DNA from: Pyrobaculum calidifontis JCM 11548
GTDB lineage: Archaea > Thermoproteota > Thermoprotei > Thermoproteales > Thermoproteaceae
Assembly (NCBI RefSeq): GCF_000015805.1
Contig: NC_009073.1
Location: 1,110,001 to 1,142,000, forward strand
Direction of reading: 5' to 3'
Length of the DNA: 32,000 bases
Position 1 is the first letter of the stretch, and each line of letters starts with the position of its first letter. Below, in pieces: positions 2,456 through 26,237 of this stretch. The notes beneath the pieces are model-generated. The model made no database searches, had not been told where the DNA came from, and worked only from the letters and a program-made list of their open reading frames with translations. The translations under genes were made by a program, and so were the position numbers.

Positions 2456-2862
2456 AGGGCCACGAGTACCTCAGGTACAGGCCCGAGCACTACCTAGAGG
2501 CCATACACCAGCTGGGGCCCCAGGCCACTCTCACCAACGTCTCCAAGGCGCTGGGGGTCAAGCCCAGCACGGCCAGGAAGATGTTGCTGGCACTGGAGAG
2601 GCAGGGCCTCGTCAAGTACCAAGGCCGTGGGGGCATCGCCCTCACCGAGGAGGGGCTTCGGCGCATAAGAGAGCTGGACGAGGTGCACAGGGCGCTGGCA
2701 GAGTTCTTCAAGGCCATAGGAGTGGAGGAGGACCTCGCCGAGGCCGAGGCGGAGAAGCTTGAACACGTGATAGACCGCAGAGTGGTGGAGAAGATGGCCA
2801 AGGCCGCGGCTCTGCTAAAGGCGCTTAGGGAATTCGCCTGCCCCCCTGCCCAGCGCCCTTAG
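2452..2862 (+). CDS. DtxR/MntR-family metal-dependent transcriptional regulator (short form, about 136 aa)
   Basis: Only the last third of the 1330-2862 ORF is protein-like. GTG 2452 overlaps the mntH stop (GTGA at 2452-2455). It has a wHTH ([42 protein letters not shown]) followed by a helical dimerisation region ([13 protein letters not shown]), as in DtxR/IdeR/MntR proteins. Confidence 0.75.
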
Positions 2863-2871
2863 GAGAGCCGC
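2806..2871. repeat. Imperfect 21-bp inverted repeat (18/21) with a 24-nt spacer at the convergent DtxR-family/trpF overlap
   Basis: Arm 1 is 2806-2826 (gcggctctgctaaaggcgctt). Arm 2 is 2851-2871 (cagcgcccttaggagagccgc), whose reverse complement is gcggctctcctaagggcgctg. The spacer contains GAATTC. Confidence 0.8.
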
Positions 2872-3465
2872 CACCTTCCCCAACTCCTTTACCCCAGGCG
2901 CAGACTCTACGCCGCTGGCCACGTCCACCATGTAGGGCCTAAGCCCCGCCACGAGGTGGGCGTTCTCGGGGGTAACCCCGCCTGCCACTGCCACTTTGCC
3001 CATGTGCACAACCCGCCTAAGCTCGGAGAGGAGTACCTTGAGCCCACCCTCGTAGCGCGGCGCAGCCCCCTTCTCCCCGTCCACGAGGACGTACTCGTGG
3101 GGCAGGGCCAAAAGCCTGGCCACCGCCTCGGCCAAGTCGACGCCCGGCCTGTACACAGCCACGGGGGCAAGTCGCACCCCCCGCGAAGCCGCGTAGTCGA
3201 CGTCCGCCGCGGTGAGGCCGCCGTGGTGCTGCACCACCGGGATCTCAAACTCCGCCGCCAAGTCCACCGCCTCCCTGGGAGACAGACTCGCCGTGACGAG
3301 CACAGGCGTACTCTTATACACGGCGCCCCTAAGCGCCCCAAGCGCCTCCCGCCGCACCGACCGCGGACTAGTAGGCTCCACGATAAACCCCACGTACTCT
3401 ACCAAGCCGTCCAACGCCTCCGCATCCTCCACCCTGGCAACACCGCAGATCTTCACCAAAACCAC
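2815..3465 (-). CDS. trpF: Phosphoribosylanthranilate isomerase
   Basis: VKICGV near the N-terminus, then the (beta/alpha)8 TrpF pattern ending in ..[21 protein letters not shown]. The longest ORF starts at TTG 3474. I prefer GTG 3465 (or GTG 3456 giving MKICG), because TATA TTTAAA at 3485-3490 lies 20-30 nt upstream. The 3' end overlaps the regulator gene by 48 nt. Confidence 0.85.
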
Positions 3466-3484
3466 AAAACGCAAAAAGACGCCA

Positions 3485-3510: not shown

Positions 3511-4146
3511 CTAAGCCGTTGGCCCGCCTTGTTGCTTCTGGCGGGAGTACGCCCACTCGTATACCGCCTCCTCTCCCCGCGAGGCGGCCATGTACAACAG
3601 TATCAACATTACGAGGCCTAGCAGGCCGGGGTCCACCGGCGAGAGTAGGCCAGACAACAGCGCCACCACCCCCACCGCCTTGAATAAGTCAACGCCAGAG
3701 TCTTCGGCTAGCTTGAGGAATACCCGCATGTAGAACCCACCGACAAGGACGCCCACGGGCCACGCGAGCCACCTCAGCGGAGATAGATCCGGCGGCCTGC
3801 TCCCCGCCTCGGCCAGAGATACGACCCACCACGCCAGCGCGGGCGCCGCCACTGCGGCCGCCACAGCCCCGCCCAGCGTCAGCCAAGCCGCATAGCGGTA
3901 CAGCCTCTCGTCGTAGAACTCGCTGAGGCCCAAAAACCCCTTAAACTCGAAGTACGCAGGCACGATGAAGAGCACGACGAAAAGAGACAGCGCGACGGCA
4001 AACGGCGTGACGCTTTGCGACAAGGCGGCAATAGAAAGGCCAACAAAGATGGCGAGAATCCCAACTACAGCAACGACAAAGCCGTATACAACTCCCCTCT
4101 TTATGTACTCAAACGCCTCCGCCGCCTTTCCCACGTCCTCGCCCAT
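3511..4146 (-). CDS. Integral membrane protein of unknown function (about 6 TM)
   Basis: Taken from ORF 3511-4287. The first 47 codons (MPILICLF...) are not protein-like and overlap the promoter. ATG at 4146 (MGEDVGKAAEAFEYIKRG...) lies about 24 nt downstream of a TATA. Long hydrophobic segments; native high GC. Confidence 0.7.
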   Translation of the reverse strand: MGEDVGKAAEAFEYIKRGVVYGFVVAVVGILAIFVGLSIAALSQSVTPFAVALSLFVVLFIVPAYFEFKGFLGLSEFYDERLYRYAAWLTLGGAVAAAVAAPALAWWVVSLAEAGSRPPDLSPLRWLAWPVGVLVGGFYMRVFLKLAEDSGVDLFKAVGVVALLSGLLSPVDPGLLGLVMLILLYMAASRGEEAVYEWAYSRQKQQGGPTA

Positions 4147-4495
4147 GGGGCATGGATTTCGAAAAAATATAAATCTGCAAAGGGGAGAGGTCGTAAAGAG
4201 GAGGGAGGCCCTAATCTCAAAGGAGCTGTTAAAGCTTGTAGCAGAGGGGAAGGTCAAGGTAACGAATAGGCAGATTAGGATAGGCAAGTGGAGGTTGGTA
4301 GAAAAACAATGGCGGTCCGAGGTCGTTAGGCACGGGGAGTTCCATTACGCTTGTCGTATTAGTAAATGGGGGCGCAGAAAGCCGACGATAGTGTTAGGCG
4401 TAGAAGGGGCTAGAGAGCTCGACCTCTACCTCCCGCGCCCCACTCGGAGATTTATGAGGCGGTTGAGGTCTCTCAAGTTCGATACGTGTATGTAG
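4145..4495 (+). CDS. Small hypothetical ORF (start very uncertain; may be non-coding or the 5' part of a degraded gene)
   Basis: This is the part of ORF 3965-4495 that is not antisense to the membrane gene. Translation: ...KELLKLVAEGKVKVTNRQIRIGKWRLVEKQWRSEVVRHGEFHYACRISKWGRRKPTIVLGVEGARELDLYL... No family recognised. Its last 82 nt overlap the open frame of the next ORF (open from 4414) in another frame. Confidence 0.25.
   Translation: MGHGFRKNINLQRGEVVKRREALISKELLKLVAEGKVKVTNRQIRIGKWRLVEKQWRSEVVRHGEFHYACRISKWGRRKPTIVLGVEGARELDLYLPRPTRRFMRRLRSLKFDTCM
4162..4174. promoter_or_regulatory. A/T-rich TATA element, possibly bidirectional
   Basis: AAAAAATATAAAT. On the minus strand it reads ATTTATATTTTTT, centred about 24 nt upstream of ATG 4146. 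Confidence 0.45.
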
Positions 4496-4707
4496 TTCCA
4501 GACGCCGTTGAAATAGAACTACTGGGCGACGAAGGTGAGACGTTAGGCAAAGTCGTAGCCGACGTGGCCGTCGAAGAGGGGATAACAGAGCCGTTGATAA
4601 CAGATGCCACAATAGATGCGCTTGGGATACAAGTGGTGAGCTTCGGCAAGGGGCTTTGGAGACACGTAAATGACCCTGAGGGAAAGGTAAGAAGCTCGGC
4701 CGCATAG
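4486..4707 (+). CDS. Small hypothetical protein; the C-terminal pattern resembles the second half of retropepsin-like (clan AA) proteins, but no DTG/DSG is present
   Basis: The frame is open from 4414, with GTG at 4486. Translation: YVVPDAVEIELLGDEGETLGKVVADVAVEEGITEPLITDATIDALGIQVVSFGKGLWRHV. The stretch PLI.D..IDALGI.V....G.L resembles the hhG.D.L..LG..hD motif. Confidence 0.3.
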   Translation: MYVVPDAVEIELLGDEGETLGKVVADVAVEEGITEPLITDATIDALGIQVVSFGKGLWRHVNDPEGKVRSSAA

Positions 4708-4732: not shown

Positions 4733-5413
4733 GTGCAAATAAAGGGTGCATTGAACCTTGCTGTGGCTTACAGCGTCGCCGTAGGTAGTGGTGCACCGTT
4801 ATTGCTGAGGGTGATTGCAGTAGACTTCTCATATTACAGAGGCGCCGTGGGCATAGGCGTGGCCGTGTATGAGGGAGACTTGCGGCACGTTCTACGCCAG
4901 TCTTTCACTTTGTCGTGGGCTAGCCACAAAATTGCGGCGACGTGCGCGTCTAGGAGGTGTTTGATGAGGGCAATAGAAACGGCGCTCAGAGGCTTCCACG
5001 TCAGGGAGAGACTAGAGCAAGGACAGATACGCAGTTTCCTTAGACTGCTCAGGGGAAGGGGGCTAAGAGTCTCCTACTTACTTGCAACTAAGTACACAAG
5101 TGTAGTAATTAGCCGTATAGCACAGCGTGGTTTCCACGGCATAAACGTAATCGTTTATGACGAACTAAGCGGCGACGAGGCAGTGCGGGCGGAGGAGATA
5201 AAGAGGGGGCTTAAGGAAAGGAGACTTAGCATAATCGGCGAAATTCGTGGTAAAAACTATCTCGTTGCCCTTAGCGATATTGCCGCATATCTAGCCGCTT
5301 TAGACAACTACCTGAGTAAATATCCTCCGGACGATGAAGAAGGCAGGAGGGCGGAGGAGATGAAAGAAGAGCTAATTGAGTTATTAAAGCCGTATAACCT
5401 TGAATTACTGTGA
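4733..5413 (+). CDS. Hypothetical protein A of the 3-gene cassette; possible degenerate RNase H-like fold
   Basis: 226-aa ORF starting at GTG 4733, with alternative in-frame GTGs at 4763 and 4811. Motif order is VIAVDFS..GIGVAVY (D at nt 4823-4825), CLMRAIETAL, VIVYDE, ALSDIAAYLAA. The stop overlaps the start of gene B (GTGA at 5410-5413). Confidence 0.55.
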   Translation: MQIKGALNLAVAYSVAVGSGAPLLLRVIAVDFSYYRGAVGIGVAVYEGDLRHVLRQSFTLSWASHKIAATCASRRCLMRAIETALRGFHVRERLEQGQIRSFLRLLRGRGLRVSYLLATKYTSVVISRIAQRGFHGINVIVYDELSGDEAVRAEEIKRGLKERRLSIIGEIRGKNYLVALSDIAAYLAALDNYLSKYPPDDEEGRRAEEMKEELIELLKPYNLELL

Positions 5414-6603
5414 TTGCGATAACCGCGTATGAGGCGCTTGAGGAGATATGCTCAGAGATTAAGCAGTTTGGGGAGCCTGCAAATCCTGCGCTGGGCACAC
5501 AGCTGAAAAACGCCTATTCAGCTCTAAAGGCGGGGGGCGCCGTAGTGGGCTTCTACGGGCAGGGAAAGAGCTTGCTGGCCAATTTGACCGCTTTGGCGGA
5601 GCTCCTCCAGGGGAGGCGGGCAGTGGTGATAAGGGCTAATCAAGTGCTAGCAGGCGAGACGGAGTTGGAGGACGTGTCAACTTGCGGAATGTTGAACGAC
5701 GTCGTAAAAGAGTGCGGTGAAACGTACCGCGACTGGTTTAGAAAAGTCATAAAACTAGATGAGGGGGGTGCGATGCGTTTAAACTGTAGGGAAAAGCTCG
5801 AGGTAAGAGGGGAAAGGCTTAGTAAACTGGACTCAATAATCGTCGACTTGAGGTCAAGGGGTTTTACGGTTGTGGTAGACGAGCTAGAGAGACTAGTGGA
5901 ACAGCCGACGGCCTACGGCTTTAGAGACCTCCTAGACCTCCGCGAGCAGTTCTTCAACTTGGTGGATAGGCGTAGCGGCGCCGCCGGCTTTGCAATACCT
6001 GTGTCGCTTTGGGCGACATTTGACATACAGATAAAGTCGCGTATTGCCCCAGTCTACTTCATCTCAGGCGACGTAAGGCCGGAGGACATGCGTGAGTTTA
6101 TGAGAAGGAAGCTTGGGCAGACGCCGAGGGAGTTTGAGCCCGTCGAATTTAGAAACCCGCGAGTCGTAGCCGCTATATTGCGAGAGCTCGCTTCTGGTAA
6201 GAGCCCAGCCGACGTAGTTAAGTTGAGGCTTGAGGTGCTTAGAGCTCTCGCAGACCTCTTGGCCAAGGGGCCTAAGGTTAAGAAGGCCCTCTTCATAGCG
6301 TTGACGGCGGCGTGGCTAAGGCAGAGCGTCTACATGGAGTTTGACAAATCGATTTTTCAAAAGGCGACGTCTCTTGCCAAGGAGTACCTCGGGGCAGATG
6401 TGGACATGGGTGTTGACGAGGCGGTCAAAGTACTAAGGCGCAACAGAAAAGTTCGGAGGGGCGTCGCCGGTTATTACCTCTCTCCCCTCGTGGTACATGA
6501 GTTAGAGGAGCTGGCGAGAGGTGGCGGCTATCAGAAGAGGCTTCTGGCGCTCTTTGGGGAGGACGTAGTGCAGAGGATATCCACAGAGCTTGGCGTTGTA
6601 TGA
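5410..6603 (+). CDS. P-loop NTPase of unassigned family (protein B of the cassette)
   Basis: 397 aa. Walker A is GFYGQGKS (nt 5548-5571) and Walker B is FTVVVDELE (VVVDE = nt 5869-5883). About 230 aa of helical C-terminal region follow. Linked to both neighbours by 4-nt overlaps. Confidence 0.7.
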   Translation: MIAITAYEALEEICSEIKQFGEPANPALGTQLKNAYSALKAGGAVVGFYGQGKSLLANLTALAELLQGRRAVVIRANQVLAGETELEDVSTCGMLNDVVKECGETYRDWFRKVIKLDEGGAMRLNCREKLEVRGERLSKLDSIIVDLRSRGFTVVVDELERLVEQPTAYGFRDLLDLREQFFNLVDRRSGAAGFAIPVSLWATFDIQIKSRIAPVYFISGDVRPEDMREFMRRKLGQTPREFEPVEFRNPRVVAAILRELASGKSPADVVKLRLEVLRALADLLAKGPKVKKALFIALTAAWLRQSVYMEFDKSIFQKATSLAKEYLGADVDMGVDEAVKVLRRNRKVRRGVAGYYLSPLVVHELEELARGGGYQKRLLALFGEDVVQRISTELGVV

Positions 6604-7487
6604 CGGCTCTTGTGGAAAGGCTTGGCACACTGCACAAGGGGGGTAGGGGTAGCTGGGTGTATCAATCCCCGCGGGTGCTCTTCCTGCTCTTATACGCCGA
6701 GGTCAAGGGGCTGGACCCAGGCGACCTCTTGCGACGCCATTTGGCGTATGTCAAGAGGATCGGGCCCCAGATGGCGTGGCTCGCCGAGCGGCTGAGGTGG
6801 CTTGGCTACGAGACGCGGGGCGGGCGGGAGCCCGACCCCCACAAGTCGATGGAGTACGCCAAGCGCCTAGGCCTAGACCCCGGGGAAGTAGCCGCCACTG
6901 TCGAGGCCTTGCTCAAGGTGCTCAAGGCCAGAGGCCCAGAGGACGCCGCCTATCTGCCACCAGCCCTCGCCCTCCCCGAGAAGGCCCTGCTCCTAGACGC
7001 CGTGGCCCAGTCCCAAGCCTTCAATCTCCGCGGGACGCTCAGCCTGTTGGCCAAGCTGGCGCAGGGCGAGGAGGTGGAGGTGGGCGACCCAGACAGCTTT
7101 AGGAGAGAGCTCCGCTTTAGACACGCCTACCTCTACGCCCTCCACTTAGCCGCGGCGGAGAGGAGGCCCACATGCCTCGGCTACGCCCTGGCCCTCCACC
7201 TCGACATGGGCCACCCCCCACTTCCCACATACATCGGCCTTCTCCGGGCCACGGGCCGGCTGAGATACGTCGTGGCCCTAGAGGCGCTGGCGCTGGGGGT
7301 GGGGACGAGGGAGGACCTCGACGTAATGCTAGACGTCTACGAAAAGTTGCTCAACAAGCGGGGCGTGGCGCTTCCGCCCCGCGAGGAGATCTACACGGCG
7401 TTTGTGGGCATGAGAAGCGACATAGGCGTAGGCATGATCGCTCCTGCAAAGCCCTTAGAAGACTTGTTGATGCTAATAGAAACTTAG
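6600..7487 (+). CDS. Hypothetical helical protein C of the cassette
   Basis: 295 aa, Leu/Ala/Arg-rich, no recognised motif. ATGA overlap with gene B at 6600-6603. Markedly more GC-rich than genes A and B. Confidence 0.6.
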   Translation: MTALVERLGTLHKGGRGSWVYQSPRVLFLLLYAEVKGLDPGDLLRRHLAYVKRIGPQMAWLAERLRWLGYETRGGREPDPHKSMEYAKRLGLDPGEVAATVEALLKVLKARGPEDAAYLPPALALPEKALLLDAVAQSQAFNLRGTLSLLAKLAQGEEVEVGDPDSFRRELRFRHAYLYALHLAAAERRPTCLGYALALHLDMGHPPLPTYIGLLRATGRLRYVVALEALALGVGTREDLDVMLDVYEKLLNKRGVALPPREEIYTAFVGMRSDIGVGMIAPAKPLEDLLMLIET

Positions 7488-7562: not shown

Positions 7563-8120
7563 ATGCGAACTTCCCAAATTAAGAATAAAATACTGGTGGC
7601 ATATGCGCTAGTAAATAGTGCTACTATACTAGCTTATGTGGTAGCTTTTTTATGCCCTTGGTCTCCTTTGAGTTATATTTTACTTTACGGTTGGATTATA
7701 GACAGTTTGCTTGTCATCATATTTCCACTGTTTTTCCGGCGAGTTGCTGCGGTCTTTGCCGCAGTCTCGTTTTTGTCTGCTCTATTCTTACCAATCGTTG
7801 GGTCAATTATTCCGGAGGATGTGCGTAGGGTTTTGCAGGCGGTGCATATCCCACTTGTCTTATATGCTGTTGCCCTTTTCGCCCTTGGCCGTGTTCTTTT
7901 GAGTGTGAGCAAGATTGCTGGGGCTATTTACTATGGTGTCGCCGCCATCATGGGGGTCTTCGCGCTGTTATACACCGTGGATATACATCTTTTCTTCGAA
8001 ATCTACCTATTAAACAGATATACAGGCGTGTTCCTCAACCTTCTATTGGCCGTTGCGTGGTTGATAGTAGCCGTTGAGGTTGTTAGAAAGCTTCGCCATG
8101 GGCATGGCCAGCCCCCGTAG
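7563..8120 (+). CDS. AT-rich orphan integral membrane protein (about 5-6 TM)
   Basis: 185 aa, nearly all hydrophobic helices. ATAAAT at 7535-7540 lies 28 nt upstream of ATG 7563. The local line 7561-7620 is 21/60 GC. Confidence 0.6.
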   Translation: MRTSQIKNKILVAYALVNSATILAYVVAFLCPWSPLSYILLYGWIIDSLLVIIFPLFFRRVAAVFAAVSFLSALFLPIVGSIIPEDVRRVLQAVHIPLVLYAVALFALGRVLLSVSKIAGAIYYGVAAIMGVFALLYTVDIHLFFEIYLLNRYTGVFLNLLLAVAWLIVAVEVVRKLRHGHGQPP

Positions 8121-8204
8121 CCGCCGCTGGGCTTGAACAGCTTCTCGCGGCATTGACAGTGTTCGCTGTCATGATCACAGGCGCCCCTCTTGTCTAGAAA
8201 GAGT

Positions 8205-8210
8205 TTTATA
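8205..8210 (+). promoter_or_regulatory. TATA box of trpB2
   Basis: TTTATA begins exactly 36 nt upstream of GTG 8241. The trpD promoter has the same spacing and downstream context. Confidence 0.5.
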
Positions 8211-8240
8211 TTCGGTGTTTTGTGGGGACATGTCCTCGGG

Positions 8241-9482
8241 GTGGATAGGTGGTACAACATAGCGGCTGACTTGCCGGCGCCTTTGGCGCCTCCCAGGGAC
8301 CCGGACGAGGGGGAGAGCAGGATTGCCCTCTTGACGAGGATTCTCCCATCGGCGCTTATCGACCAGGAGTTCACCGCAGAGAGGTGGGTCGCCATCCCGG
8401 AGGAAGTTAGGGCGGTCTACGCCAGGCTGGGAAGGCCCACTCCCCTCCTCCGTGCCGAGGGTCTGGAGAGGGCCCTTGGGGTCGAGGTGAGGATTTACTA
8501 CAAGTACGAGGGCGTTCTGCCGGTGGGTAGCCATAAGGTCAACACGGCGGTGGCCCAGGCCTACTACGCCAAGGCTGACGGCGCGGTGGAAGTGGCCACG
8601 GAGACTGGGGCGGGGCAGTGGGGCATGGCGGTCTCGCTAGCCGCGGCCCTCTTTGGCCTCAGGGCGGTGGTGTTTATGACTAGGTCTTCTTACAACTCCA
8701 AGCGGCAGAGGCTCGCCTTTATGAGGGCCTACGGCGCCACTGTGTACCCCAGCCCAAGCGACGTCACTGAGGCGGGGAGGAGGCACTACAGGCCGGACCA
8801 CCCCGGCTCCCTTGGCATAGCCATATCGGAAGCTGTGGAGTACGTCCTCTCGGGGGAGAGGAGGCGCTACCTGCCGGGCAGCGTGATGGAGTTCGTCCTC
8901 TTGCACCAGACGGTGATTGGGCTAGAGGCCGTGAGGCAGTTGCCCGAGGAGCCCGACGTCGCCGTGGCCTGCGTGGGTGGGGGGTCCAACTTCGCCGGCT
9001 TTACCTACCCAATGATAGGGGCCAAGCTGAGGGGGGAGGGGTTTGAGAAAACCCGCTTCATAGCCGCAGAGTCCGCCGCCGCCCCCAAGTTGACCAAGGG
9101 AGAGTACAGATACGACTTCCCCGACGCGGTGGGCACCTTGCCCATGATCAAGATGTACACCCTGGGCCACGACTACGTCCCGCCCCCCGTCCACGCCGCG
9201 GGGCTCCGCTACCACGGAGCGGCGCCGAGCCTATCCCTCCTACGCCGCCTCGGCTACATAGAGGCAGTGGCCTACCCCCAGGAGGAGGTTATGCAAGCCG
9301 CCCTACTATTCGCCCGAACAGAGGGCGTAATCCCAGCCCCCGAGTCGGCCCACGCCATAAAAGCCGCAATAGACATAGCCAAGAAGTTGCCCCCAGGCTC
9401 CGTCATCGCCATAAACGTCTCCGGCCACGGCCTCCTAGACGTAGACGCCTACGAAAAATTCCTAGACATAAAACAGCCCTAG
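8241..9482 (+). CDS. trpB: Tryptophan synthase beta chain, TrpB2 type
   Basis: N-terminal WYNIAADLPAPLAPPRDP is typical of TrpB2. The PLP-lysine motif is LPVGSHKVNTAVAQAYYA. The longest ORF starts at TTG 8190, but the TATA at 8205-8210 lies inside it. GTG 8241 (MDRWYN) sits in the same 10-mer TCGGGGTGGA as the trpD start. Confidence 0.9.
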   Translation: MDRWYNIAADLPAPLAPPRDPDEGESRIALLTRILPSALIDQEFTAERWVAIPEEVRAVYARLGRPTPLLRAEGLERALGVEVRIYYKYEGVLPVGSHKVNTAVAQAYYAKADGAVEVATETGAGQWGMAVSLAAALFGLRAVVFMTRSSYNSKRQRLAFMRAYGATVYPSPSDVTEAGRRHYRPDHPGSLGIAISEAVEYVLSGERRRYLPGSVMEFVLLHQTVIGLEAVRQLPEEPDVAVACVGGGSNFAGFTYPMIGAKLRGEGFEKTRFIAAESAAAPKLTKGEYRYDFPDAVGTLPMIKMYTLGHDYVPPPVHAAGLRYHGAAPSLSLLRRLGYIEAVAYPQEEVMQAALLFARTEGVIPAPESAHAIKAAIDIAKKLPPGSVIAINVSGHGLLDVDAYEKFLDIKQP

Positions 9483-15293: not shown

Positions 15294-17156
15294 GTGGTTT
15301 TAAAACGTGTTTTTAACATGGAGAGAGAAGTGGTTGTCAACAGGGCTTTGGAGGAGTTCCGCGAGAGGCTTTTGAGGTGGGACGAGCTGTGCGAACAGCT
15401 AAGGGAGCTCTACTACAGGTACCTCGACCTAGCGGCCTTCCGCTCGGAAAAGTGCTACTTCCCCGGCAGAAAGTGCAAGAGGCCGTGGAAGCGGGAGTAC
15501 GACGTAGGCGATCTCACCCTCATGTGGACGTACATTATGAACACCGCGCCGCTATGCGGCAAGCTCATAAGGGCGTTGGCGGAAGTGGAGTACGAGATAC
15601 GCAAAAGGGCAATAGAGAGTCTTGAAAAGTATGGCGGTGTTAAAAAGAAGGTGAGTCCCAACGGTGGGCGTGAAATAATACATATCCGTTTAAAAAAGCC
15701 AGTATATGGGTATTTAATATTGTGGAATGACAAGCTTTACACAATATGGGGCGAGTTTGATGATTTGCCCAAGAACGGTCGACTGAGAGTCGATGAGGTT
15801 GGGCGTAGAGTTACAAACGTTATAGAGTGGTACAAACGCGGTGAGGAAGTAGAAGTTGAAGTGAAAGAATACGATATTGACAAAGAGTATGAGCGACTGT
15901 GGTTCGAAGTTCCTTTGTCAAATAATATTTCGAAGTTGTTGGGTGGAAGGGACAGGGCGCCGATAGCGCTATTTAGGAATCTCGGGTGGTTGTTGAGTGA
16001 CGACTGGAGACAACTACTTGGACACACAGCTGGCAATTTTGGTCAAATGACTATGAGATTATTCGATTGGATTTCTTTAGTAAAATATAAAATGACGAGA
16101 GAATTCTCACCAAATGTGTTACTAATTTTTAGGTTTATGGTAAATAGAATGACAAAGACAAAAAACGGTGAAAATCCCATAGTGAAAATACGGCCTATTG
16201 GTACTGCGGTCGAAGCCGTTCAAGCCGCTTACGAGTTGTTTGGAATAACGCTGGGTAAGACTGAGGAAGTGCTTGCCCGCGGCTATGCCGTGCTGGGGGC
16301 GCTGAAAGAAGAGGCCTTTAAACGCGATGGCAAAGTATACGTCGTTGACGACGTCAGTGCGTGGATTGCTTTTAGCAACGCCGCGGCGGTAGTGGTGTTG
16401 GGCGACGGTTACGTCATGCCAACTGAATTTAGAGTAGTAGCCAAGTTGTCGACGAATAAAACGTTAGCGGGAGAGACGGCGAGAGTGAAAGAGCTAGCAA
16501 AGGCGCTGGGCGGGACGGCGGTTGGGAGAGAGGTAAGACTTCAAAGTTGGCATATGCGCTTATTGCTTCCAATATCGCCAATGCCATCTTTTGAAAAAGC
16601 GACCAAGTTATACAAAGCACTTGTCAATTATTTAGCGGCCGTTATAGTGGAGATTAACGGTACTACATACTTGCTTACACATACTAGGGGTGGCAAATTT
16701 GTAATTGGAAAAGAGAAGGCAAAAACGCTATACGAGACTGTGGAGCGGCTTAAGTTGAGGACAAAATTTGAGAAGAATATGATAGTATTGGCTTACACCC
16801 AACTTAAAGAGTTAGCGAAACGGGGCTTTATCGTTAAATTCCTCAATGATATGGAAAAAGATGCGATAAGAGAAGTAAAACCTGTGTTACCGATGCCCGA
16901 CTTAGAGGAGGTTAGAAAGGTGTTTGAGAAAATAGCTAACGTTGCAAGAATTTCTGTCGGATTGTATCGGGGACGCGAATATGTCTACATTACATTGTAT
17001 GACAAGTCTAAAGTCGAGGAAGTAGCCGCCATGCTTAAAACTGTAGGGATAAGGTTCTCTCTAGTTCGCCAGGAAGGATTATTGTTGGTACGTGAACGAA
17101 GGTCGGTCGAAATAATTTGTAAGTCGATTCTACATCTTTTTCCAGGTCGTCTCTAA
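15294..17156 (+). CDS. Large orphan protein (620 aa), low GC; possibly a Pyrobaculum paralogous-repeat (PaREP2-like) protein, with two LAGLIDADG-like motifs
   Basis: Starts at GTG 15294 or ATG 15318 (MEREVVVN). Motif 1 is LGWLLSDDW (nt 15981-16007) and motif 2 is AAVVVLGDGYV (core nt 16389-16415). The C-terminal third contains repeated beta-alpha-beta-like modules. The PaREP assignment is from memory only and is unverified. Confidence 0.6.
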   Translation: MVLKRVFNMEREVVVNRALEEFRERLLRWDELCEQLRELYYRYLDLAAFRSEKCYFPGRKCKRPWKREYDVGDLTLMWTYIMNTAPLCGKLIRALAEVEYEIRKRAIESLEKYGGVKKKVSPNGGREIIHIRLKKPVYGYLILWNDKLYTIWGEFDDLPKNGRLRVDEVGRRVTNVIEWYKRGEEVEVEVKEYDIDKEYERLWFEVPLSNNISKLLGGRDRAPIALFRNLGWLLSDDWRQLLGHTAGNFGQMTMRLFDWISLVKYKMTREFSPNVLLIFRFMVNRMTKTKNGENPIVKIRPIGTAVEAVQAAYELFGITLGKTEEVLARGYAVLGALKEEAFKRDGKVYVVDDVSAWIAFSNAAAVVVLGDGYVMPTEFRVVAKLSTNKTLAGETARVKELAKALGGTAVGREVRLQSWHMRLLLPISPMPSFEKATKLYKALVNYLAAVIVEINGTTYLLTHTRGGKFVIGKEKAKTLYETVERLKLRTKFEKNMIVLAYTQLKELAKRGFIVKFLNDMEKDAIREVKPVLPMPDLEEVRKVFEKIANVARISVGLYRGREYVYITLYDKSKVEEVAAMLKTVGIRFSLVRQEGLLLVRERRSVEIICKSILHLFPGRL

Positions 17157-24782: not shown

Positions 24783-26237
24783 ATGACTGAAACAACTAAG
24801 TTAGGTAAGTTACCTATTGAAGTTGTTGATAAAATTCCGACGCCCGAAGAAGTTTTTAACGTAAAGAAAATTGGAGTAAAAGAGAGGATTTTGTTACTAT
24901 ATGGGTCGGCGCTTATAGCTCTTGGTGTTTCAATAGGAAGCGGTGAATTCTTACTGGGCCCCTCCCTGTCTATAAAATTAGGGCTTGTATTAGCGTGGCT
25001 TGTGCCTATTGGAGCTTTTCTACAAACAATATACATATATAGTTATACAAAATTCACTATAGCTACAGGTGAAACACCTGTGACAATGTTCTTCAGAATT
25101 GGTATATGGGCAGGCTGGTTGGGAGCACTTGGTGTCTTAATTGGGAATATCTGGGGTGGTTGGGCCTACTCTGCCGCAGCAGCATTGGCAGGAGGCTTTC
25201 TAGGCAGACAGCCAACCCCCGAAGATCGCATGTTTGTCGGAATCGCCGGCTTCTCTCTATTACTTCTCGCGTTTGTGATTCTCTCCCTAGGACGGAGAGT
25301 TGCAAGAACTCTTGAAATATTTAATTGGTTTGACCTAGGTGTAGTTTTTACTTCGTTTATAATTCTTGCAATAATTTTAGTTCCGCCCTCTATATGGGGT
25401 GAGCTAGGTAGCGGCCTAGTTTCATTTACCATACCTCAAGGAATTGACCCTATTCTCTTAGCGGGTTGGTGGGGGTACATCGGATTACTCACAGGGCTAA
25501 ATTATGTGGCGGTCAGCTGGTTTAAAGACAAAGGCCATGGCATGGGATCGCTTACGGGCTACATATCGGCGCTGATTGGCGGTAAGAAAATAGAAGTTAG
25601 TACATTTGGAAAAATATTTAGACTCACACCCGAGAATATAAAGATATTTAAAAGATGGTGCAATCTAGCATTAGAAGAATTATTTGTGATATTCTTTTTG
25701 GGCGCCATTGTTGGCATGCTTATACCTATGACTCTGGCATATGCGATTGCCAGAGGTCTTGGATTAGAAATTCTTTGGGGAATTCCGTTGTGGCTAGCCT
25801 TAGCGCTAGGCAAGTTATGGGGACCCGCCGGGTATTGGTGGGGCGTGGTAGTGGCTGTGTTTGTTTTATTTAAGACGCAACTTGGAATAGTAGATGCTAT
25901 AGTTAGAAATGTGGCAGACGCCGCTTGGAAGTCGGAAGGCGTTAGGAAGTTCTTTAGAAACGACATAAGATATCTCTACTACTTGTTAGTGGCTATCATC
26001 TTGGCTTGGGCTTCTGTGGCGTTTTTCGCAACGGCACCAGTAACACTGATTCTTATATCGTCTAACATGGCAAACGCCGCAGCTCTATACGGAGTACCGT
26101 TTTTACTGTATCTAAATTATAAGATGCCTAAGGAGCTAAGGTTACACTGGGGGCTAATAGTGCTAAATATCATATTCATGATTATATGTGCAATCTTTTT
26201 GACATTCTCAGTGGGAAGAGCGCTGGGAGTTCTATAA
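24783..26237 (+). CDS. Multi-pass permease, distantly Nramp/APC-fold-like, lacking Nramp metal-site motifs
   Basis: 484 aa, about 11-12 TM. The N-terminal TM1 segment ALGVSIGSGEFLLGPS resembles the unwound TM1 of COG1914-type proteins, but has GSGE in place of DPGN and no MPH motif. Line 24841-24900 is 20/60 GC. Confidence 0.55.
   Translation: MTETTKLGKLPIEVVDKIPTPEEVFNVKKIGVKERILLLYGSALIALGVSIGSGEFLLGPSLSIKLGLVLAWLVPIGAFLQTIYIYSYTKFTIATGETPVTMFFRIGIWAGWLGALGVLIGNIWGGWAYSAAAALAGGFLGRQPTPEDRMFVGIAGFSLLLLAFVILSLGRRVARTLEIFNWFDLGVVFTSFIILAIILVPPSIWGELGSGLVSFTIPQGIDPILLAGWWGYIGLLTGLNYVAVSWFKDKGHGMGSLTGYISALIGGKKIEVSTFGKIFRLTPENIKIFKRWCNLALEELFVIFFLGAIVGMLIPMTLAYAIARGLGLEILWGIPLWLALALGKLWGPAGYWWGVVVAVFVLFKTQLGIVDAIVRNVADAAWKSEGVRKFFRNDIRYLYYLLVAIILAWASVAFFATAPVTLILISSNMANAAALYGVPFLLYLNYKMPKELRLHWGLIVLNIIFMIICAIFLTFSVGRALGVL

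Follow-up and report, generated by a model that had tools for sequence, protein, structure and literature searches.

A patchily distributed three-gene operon of Pyrobaculum and its relatives encoding a predicted Orc1/Cdc6-like ATPase, a putative RNase H-fold nuclease and an orphan protein

To our knowledge, few defence or conflict systems have been defined in Crenarchaeota beyond CRISPR-Cas and toxin-antitoxin (TA) pairs, and most catalogues of such systems have been built from bacterial data. What, then, is the role of three overlapping genes, here called A, B and C, in a 32,000-nucleotide stretch of the Pyrobaculum calidifontis JCM 11548 genome (the window, whose coordinates we use unless another locus is named)? 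All three lie on the plus strand: A at 4763–5413 (216 amino acids, in an open reading frame (ORF) that is open from a GTG at 4733, giving 226), B at 5410–6603 (397 amino acids) and C at 6600–7487 (295 amino acids). A and B share the nucleotides GTGA (5410–5413), and B and C share ATGA (6600–6603). An initial annotation, made from the sequence alone, had read these 4-nucleotide overlaps as chaining the three ORFs into one expression unit; the coordinates are correct, and the overlaps are kept in most of the loci that we recovered. Our leading interpretation, which we hold at a little short of an even chance, is that the trio is an accessory, ATP-dependent, DNA-recognising nuclease system, probably engaged in defence or genetic conflict.

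We asked whether the trio has relatives and whether its genes travel together. At threshold, A, B and C matched no model in Pfam, NCBIfam, PADLOC or PHROG, so the Pfam and PADLOC checks that the initial annotation had called for leave the trio unannotated, and a literature search for locus tags, accessions or any description of an A-B-C trio found nothing. In a set of 5.8 billion proteins, the B family amounts to 8 clusters, each from Pyrobaculum, Thermoproteus or a hot-spring metagenome; B itself falls in a 90%-identity cluster containing ABO08628.1 (P. calidifontis JCM 11548) and is 99% identical to the representative. Wherever we recovered a complete locus, A, B and C stand side by side. 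These loci represent at least seven unrelated contexts, in Pyrobaculum, Thermoproteus and thermophile contigs of lower GC, with homology confirmed by BLASTP and profile searches down to about 25–30% identity. The 4-nucleotide overlap is present between B and C in seven of eight loci and between A and B in six of eight. One lineage (L103/L104) has the order B-C-A, yet the genes are still together, indicating that their linkage survives rearrangement.

The contexts themselves differ widely in character. The trpF–trpB2 site of the window is shared by L002 and L096–L099. In P. aerophilum IM2 and its relatives (L088–L090, L084) the trio lies beside an ATPase_2 gene and PaREP1 genes, and in P. ferrireducens, Pyrobaculum sp. 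3827-6 and a metagenome-assembled genome (MAG; L091, L092, L001) it lies between a gene for a 450-amino-acid secreted-looking protein and a Csx1 plus Cmr cassette. Four further contexts occur on contigs of 36–59% GC (L003, L093, L100, L102, L103). The position of the trio is stable among strains of one species, with one B cluster per species and, as far as is visible, a single copy per genome. Judged from sequence, the trio is a patchily distributed, context-independent and probably accessory operon, conserved as a unit as the initial annotation had suspected, and its status as one expression unit is supported. A B-profile scan of GTDB representative genomes returned nothing; P. aerophilum and P. 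ferrireducens carry the trio, so this is not evidence of absence. In a TrpB2 scan of representative genomes for an empty site, the matches were all distant, none of them above 56% identity and none from Thermoproteaceae. Because both scans missed Pyrobaculum, negatives from that collection are untrustworthy for this clade.

Some of these loci place the trio near known conflict genes. In the loci of P. ferrireducens, sp. 3827-6 and the MAG (L091 13752–20606, L092 13764–20618, L001 13834–19700), the trio lies within about 1–2 kb of type III CRISPR genes; each locus has a Cmr/RAMP cassette, and in P. ferrireducens and sp. 3827-6 a Csx1 CARF gene precedes it. HEPN-MNT, VapBC or CcdA genes occur near the trio in several loci. 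The initial annotation had asked about co-localisation with CRISPR-cas, TA and integrase genes: CRISPR genes do appear in one class of context and TA genes at several loci, but the window holds no integrase.

What might the products of such an operon do? B had been described as a P-loop ATPase followed by helical domains, and it does carry a Walker A motif, GFYGQGKS (5548–5571), and a Walker B motif, VVVDE (5869–5883, within TVVVDELER at 5866–5892). G47, G50, G52, K53, D157 and E158 are invariant in nine of nine divergent members, and a family-specific N-terminal motif, GEPANPAL (5470–5493), precedes the core. An AlphaFold2 (AF2) model of B built on an eight-sequence alignment reached a predicted local distance difference test score (pLDDT) of 88 and a predicted template modelling score (pTM) of 0.82. 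Its top Foldseek matches in the PDB are human ORC4, Aquifex DnaA and P. aerophilum Cdc6 (E 1.6e-4 to 5.9e-4, Foldseek probability 0.97–1.0), followed more weakly by further ORC and Cdc6 chains, BREX BrxC, RFC, RuvB and plant nucleotide-binding leucine-rich repeat proteins (NLRs). By its predicted fold, B is an AAA+ ATPase of the Orc1/Cdc6/DnaA clade. The initial annotation had set Orc1/Cdc6 aside, which is right for sequence models, where B matched no Cdc6_C or other curated Orc/Cdc6 model and no PDB sequence, but not for fold, where ORC4, DnaA and Cdc6 come first.

The likeness extends to individual elements. Set against the hallmarks that PMC12839542 gives for the clade (of which P. aerophilum Cdc6, PDB 1FNN, is an example), B shows the AAA+ core with both Walker motifs, helices inserted behind strand 2, a putative Arg finger ahead of strand 5, a helical lid and, towards the C terminus, a winged helix; it differs in matching no Orc/Cdc6 sequence model and in having its own GEPANPAL motif. 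The insert (residues 76–136, nucleotides 5635–5817) is modelled as helices 76–80, 86–89 and 92–113 between strands 71–75 and 153–157. A putative sensor 1, S199, falls within 5989–6012. By position only, we assign a putative Arg finger to R211 (6040–6042), which is invariant and sits in helix 206–212 just before strand 5 (215–217), and a putative sensor 2 to R251 (6160–6162), which belongs to an xPR motif at the start of lid helix 250–261 and is present in eight of nine members. Helices 224–303 follow, then helices 313–344 and a hairpin (348–350/355–357), giving a winged helix over residues 313–357 (nucleotides 6346–6480). The insert and the winged-helix helices are the least conserved segments of B, both between close alleles and across the family. 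Their counterparts in Orc1 are the two elements that touch DNA in Orc1–DNA complexes (structural work cited in PMC12839542, ref. 93).

Weaker hints accompany these matches. AAA_22, below cut-off in six of nine B members (best E 0.001), is the only recurrent Pfam hint, and PADLOC gave sub-threshold matches of B to mad8 (E 0.04), SspC (E 0.04) and, in two of nine members, PDC-S27 (E 0.005). The order of domains in B, nucleotide-binding domain, helical region and winged helix, may be compared with that of STAND/NLR proteins, and plant NLRs stand low in its match list; C has no match to a repeat family (TPR, WD40 or LRR).

Because the best structural matches of B are initiators, including the Cdc6 of P. 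aerophilum, the trio could instead serve to initiate replication of an extrachromosomal element, captured or cryptic, with B as an initiator with allele-specific origin recognition, C as a loader or partner resembling WhiP or Cdt1, and A as a primer-processing RNase H. The variable parts of B would fit as well, being origin-DNA contact elements in Orc1, and integrated elements of archaea typically carry Orc/Cdc6-like ATPases (PMC4158269). However, an Orc1/Cdc6 initiator would be expected to be near-universal and to lie beside an origin with origin recognition box (ORB)-type repeats, whereas B is patchy, has no such repeats that we could find and always occurs with A and C. No flank, coding or non-coding, is common to different contexts, which argues against a linked origin, and no repeats or iterons lie near the trio. 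Scans for tRNA and Rfam elements in the window found neither, and no integrase or other element gene is present. A viral-contig scan, tblastn of A, B and C against phage and archaeal-virus genomes, tblastn of B against plasmids, a PHROG search and a BFVD fold search of B likewise returned no specific relative. P. calidifontis has four mapped or predicted origins (PMC4009838), and its trio lies at none of them, its position being a gene-number estimate only. We regard this replication role as quite unlikely.

A, the smallest of the three proteins, had been proposed to adopt an RNase H-like fold, and its AF2 model (pLDDT 79, pTM 0.78) agrees. The best Foldseek match in the PDB is an archaeal RNase HII (1eke_B, E 3.5e-4, Foldseek probability 1.0), with weaker matches to retroviral integrase catalytic cores, reverse transcriptase RNase H, RNase HI and RuvX, and the predicted structure places A in the RNase H-like superfamily. 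The initial annotation had considered the acidic positions of A not cleanly conserved and the fold possibly inactivated. Neither view is supported by the comparison of family members: D31 (4823–4825, strand 1), D143 (5159–5161, at the end of the fourth core strand, 137–142) and D182 (5276–5278, at the start of helix 178–196) are kept in 10 of 10 members, down to 15% identity, with D143 requiring a 2-residue alignment shift in the most divergent ones. In the model, these three residues occupy the canonical RNase H-like catalytic carboxylate positions, suggesting that A is likely an active metal-dependent nuclease or polynucleotidyl transferase. The family also shares the signature motifs hhhhDFS, GxGV and GKNYxVxLSDIxAY. 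Of the possible candidates for a fourth catalytic residue, E92 (in GxHxRE) is invariant in Pyrobaculum-type members and cannot be aligned in L093, L102 and L103, and H65 is retained by most of the family, though not throughout.

How close is A to RNase HII itself? Like RNase HII (PDB 1EKE), A is about 215 amino acids long, with helices inserted ahead of strand 4 of its core sheet and a helical extension at the C terminus, and its carboxylates take up corresponding places: strand 1, the end of core strand 4 and the helix that follows. The spacing of its aspartates, 112 and 39 residues, appears to resemble that of RNase HII (D7/E8, D105 and D135 in Tk-RNase HII). We nevertheless rejected membership of the RNase HII family, as strand 1 reads DFS, not DE, and no RNase_HII model matched. 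A had no match to any Pfam or NCBIfam model, RNase_HII included, and a sequence-profile search of the PDB gave nothing significant. It further differs from housekeeping rnhB in being hypervariable and operon-linked to an AAA+ ATPase.

The integrase cores among the fold matches of A point to another alternative, in which the trio is a remnant or domesticated transposition module of Tn7, Mu or IS21 type, with A as a DDE/DDD transposase, B as its AAA+ regulator and C as a target selector. The second and third aspartates of A are 39 residues apart, near the DD35E/DD34D spacing, the trio sits at many different genomic sites, and AAA_22 is a family that also covers TniB-type ATPases. Yet no terminal inverted or direct repeats surround the cassette in the seven loci examined, and no flank is conserved across contexts. 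A has only about 200 amino acids and lacks a DNA-binding domain, and TnsC, IstB, MuB and DnaC are not among the top 50 PDB matches of B. The single copy per genome and the stable position among strains of one species are also not what such a module would predict. We find a transposition module very unlikely. As to the initial annotation's suggestion of a defence or mobile-element module, which is still a hypothesis, the evidence speaks against a self-mobile element and leans towards an accessory conflict system.

C is a helical orphan protein as judged from its sequence, in agreement with the initial annotation, which had recognised no motif in it. Profile searches found no consistent Pfam or PDB relative, and profile-profile comparison revealed no relationship of C to B or to A. 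A search of 1.84 billion representative proteins gave 27 matches, mostly fragments; two of these, P0032 and P0042, were discarded as spurious repeat proteins, leaving about 25 genuine relatives. A match to wHTH-HSP90_Na-assoc, covering 13 residues in one member only, was dismissed as noise. Of the three proteins, C is the best conserved. H47 is invariant, and three motifs stand out, RGxWxYQSPR (6645–6674), LPPxLxLPEK (6954–6983) and RExRFRxxYLYxLH (7104–7145).

A, by contrast with C, is the hypervariable member, and we asked what kind of divergence underlies this. Comparing the window with the syntenic L002, synonymous divergence (dS) is 0.16–0.22 for trpF, trpB2 and C and about 1.45 for A and B, with ratios of nonsynonymous to synonymous divergence (dN/dS) of 0.28 for A and 0.13 for B. 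Against L105, dS falls from 1.12 in A to 0.42 in B and 0.21 at the start of C. For P. ferrireducens against sp. 3827-6, dS is 0.10–0.13 in B, C and the flanks, and A alone stands at 0.77, with 60% amino-acid identity and a dN/dS of 0.38. The dS of A thus reaches 5–7 times that of its flanks between close relatives at a dN/dS of 0.28–0.38. All three genes are under purifying selection (dN/dS 0.11–0.38), and P. calidifontis-like populations hold at least three or four A allele classes (46–63% identical) alongside near-identical C.

At the sequence level, the much older divergence of A stops at the borders of the gene in two independent lineage pairs, and the gene has remained under purifying selection, a pattern indicating that old, divergent A alleles are swapped by recombination. 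High dS together with low dN/dS rules out decay and simple rapid evolution of A. We also rejected fast positive selection as the main cause of its divergence, given that dS itself is raised 5–7-fold over the flanks and dN/dS is only 0.28–0.38. GC content rises along the cassette (A 0.50, B 0.54, C 0.64), and A is the lowest-GC gene in almost every locus, which explains the compositional step; together with the unequal dS of the three genes, this upholds the view that the cassette is a mosaic.

The same data bear on whether the three ORFs merely happen to be adjacent, or are pseudogenes in decay, and share no function. Database annotation is absent, and some copies have decayed: a 71-amino-acid remnant of B with a mutated Walker B motif (VVVDKFER) lies at L086 660–869 and L087 1045–1260, and A is split by a frameshift at L100 8253–8826, where B and C are intact. 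Against this stand co-inheritance over at least seven contexts to about 25–30% identity, with one permuted order, the dN/dS values of all three genes, invariant catalytic motifs and confident AF2 models of A and B. We find such a chance association hardly credible.

Selection and fold matches also admit a housekeeping role, either as an accessory module of DNA repair or recombination analogous to RuvC-RuvB-RuvA or in the processing of R-loops or RNA:DNA hybrids by an RNase HII-like enzyme. Many RuvB and clamp-loader chains occur in the fold list of B (Foldseek probability 0.7–0.9), RNase HII tops that of A, where the resolvase-like RuvX is also found, the neighbours in the window are housekeeping genes, and A, B and C are all under purifying selection. 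As in the Ruv set, the trio pairs a putative nuclease of RNase H fold with an AAA+ ATPase that carries a winged helix in its C-terminal part, and adds a helical third protein. The trio, however, is not universal, its nuclease-like member is hypervariable, and we found no evidence that C resembles RuvA. In E-value, ORC, Cdc6 and DnaA lie about two orders of magnitude ahead of RuvB, and most sequenced relatives lack the trio (there are only 8 B clusters), which occupies differing loci from species to species and has decayed in places. Gene-bounded allelic replacement of A, with dS 5–7 times that of the flanks, would be unexpected for a repair enzyme. We consider a repair or hybrid-processing role unlikely.

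We therefore return to an accessory conflict or defence system as the interpretation that we prefer. It is suggested by the patchy distribution and many insertion contexts, by the Csx1/Cmr, HEPN-MNT, VapBC or CcdA genes near several loci, by the existence of decayed copies and, above all, by the recombination of old alleles of A and of the DNA-contact elements of B. We infer complex formation, DNA binding, nuclease activity and a defence role as follows. A, B and C would form one nucleic-acid-targeting complex, in which B would bind DNA in the manner of Orc1/Cdc6, using its winged helix and the helices inserted after strand 2. Binding and hydrolysis of ATP by B, in an Arg-finger-dependent oligomer, would act as a switch that licenses A or positions it on the bound nucleic acid. 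A would then cut this nucleic acid as a Mg2+-dependent RNase H-fold nuclease with a D-D-D site, and C may serve as a conserved structural core or adaptor. The complex would discriminate self from non-self DNA in defence or genetic conflict, and old, divergent alleles of A and of the DNA-contact elements of B would be kept in populations and exchanged by recombination. A fuller version of this proposal, that the trio is an undescribed three-component archaeal immunity or self/non-self system in which B, with allele-specific DNA-contact elements, directs the nuclease A, the novel-fold C assists and divergent A alleles are maintained by balancing selection across Pyrobaculum populations, is one that we regard as possible yet rather doubtful.

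Several observations weigh against a defence nuclease. The fold matches have low TM-scores, 0.3–0.4 for A (0.38 for RNase HII) and 0.25–0.39 for B, although low scores are expected for B because it is a multi-domain protein. A seems to lack a conserved counterpart of the glutamate of DEDD or RNase HII sites, E92 not being retained in the most divergent members, and its strand 1 carries DFS in place of a DE pair. Neither A nor C matched anything in PADLOC-DB v2, and no trio component did so at threshold. The window neighbourhood consists of trp and transporter genes with no recognised defence gene, of about seven contexts only one has CRISPR genes next to the trio, and TA genes abound in these genomes. 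Finally, the sensor is usually the variable part of sensor-effector defence systems, whereas in the trio variability is greatest in A, the putative effector, and lowest in C.

Comparison with known anti-invader systems sharpens what would be new. Systems that combine an NTPase with a nuclease, such as the ORC/Cdc6-ATPase ‘capture’ systems (PMC12839542), resemble the trio in joining an ATPase to a predicted nuclease, in patchy distribution, in fast-evolving winged helix-turn-helix (wHTH) or other DNA-contact elements and in the location of some loci near TA or CRISPR genes. They differ in that A has an RNase H fold, not PD-(D/E)xK, HNH or Toprim, that C has no counterpart and that the trio is found only in Thermoproteales-type thermophiles. 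BREX BrxC and BrxD and DUF499 proteins are defence ATPases of the same clade as B, and BrxC is in its match list; BrxC, however, has about 1200 amino acids to the 400 of B, and no BREX gene (PglZ, PglX) lies near the trio. None of the three families has been described, C being an orphan, and neither the combination nor its population-genetic signature turned up in the literature searched; the two superfamilies and the pairing of ATPase with nuclease are known. If the defence role is correct, the trio would be a new type of system and a further recruitment of the ORC/Cdc6 scaffold into immunity, and it would give C its first functional context. The allelic polymorphism of A and the variable DNA-contact parts of B offer a testable idea of where specificity lies, and P. 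calidifontis and P. aerophilum can both be cultivated.

How the operon begins can be read from its 5′ end. A probably starts at GTG 4763 rather than at 4733, because homologues begin there, gene callers on independent assemblies pick 4763, a TATA-like box, AAATAAAG, occupies 4737–4744, and the model leaves residues 1–20 of the long form without structure (pLDDT < 50). The AAATAAAG box (4737–4744, plus strand) lies about 19–26 nucleotides upstream of GTG 4763, and A/T boxes about 25–35 nucleotides upstream of A also occur in L002, L088, L091 and L092. From its placement, AAATAAAG would be a putative operon promoter giving a leaderless or short-leader transcript.

Directly upstream of A, a 73-amino-acid ORF (4486–4707, plus strand) is annotated by gene callers in L096 and L099, is frameshifted in L002 and has no match in a Pfam search. 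P. aerophilum has a 59% identical homologue at a distance of 3 kb from its trio (L088 15732–15941, minus strand). This ORF may be loosely linked to the trio or a coincidental neighbour.

In the window, the cassette sits in a non-trp insert between trpF, which encodes phosphoribosylanthranilate isomerase (PRAI; 2815–3474, minus strand), and a TrpB2-type PALP gene (8190–9482). The insert is completed by an AT-rich membrane-protein gene (7563–8120, plus strand; GC 0.43), whose product is 35–40% identical to its L002 counterpart in flanking DNA that is about 95% identical. It does not accompany the trio in other contexts, placing it outside the conserved trio. This segment (L002 6007–7192) is a second hypervariable part of the same island, and L002 has there an extra 230-amino-acid secreted-looking ORF that is absent from the window. 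The trpF-proximal part of the insert encodes, at 3511–4287 on the minus strand, a membrane protein with a weak DUF996 match that is 86% conserved with L002; a plus-strand ORF overlapping it (3965–4495) is probably spurious.

At the loci with CRISPR genes, a HEPN-nucleotidyltransferase pair lies about 9 kb upstream in P. ferrireducens, sp. 3827-6 and the MAG. An ATPase of SMC/AAA_15 type flanks the Cmr cassette in L091 and L001, and may correspond to the ‘cluster 17’ SMC-type accessory ATPase (PMC6546367).

Two orphan ORFs lie elsewhere in the window, both on the plus strand and without a match in Pfam or PHROG. One (15294–17156; 620 amino acids; GC about 0.42–0.46 against a background of about 0.62) lies between trpC and a cation-efflux gene, and the other (24783–26237; 484 amino acids; GC 0.34–0.45) between glycolate-oxidase-type genes and malate synthase. 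From their composition and setting, both look like further foreign or variable insertions among housekeeping genes.

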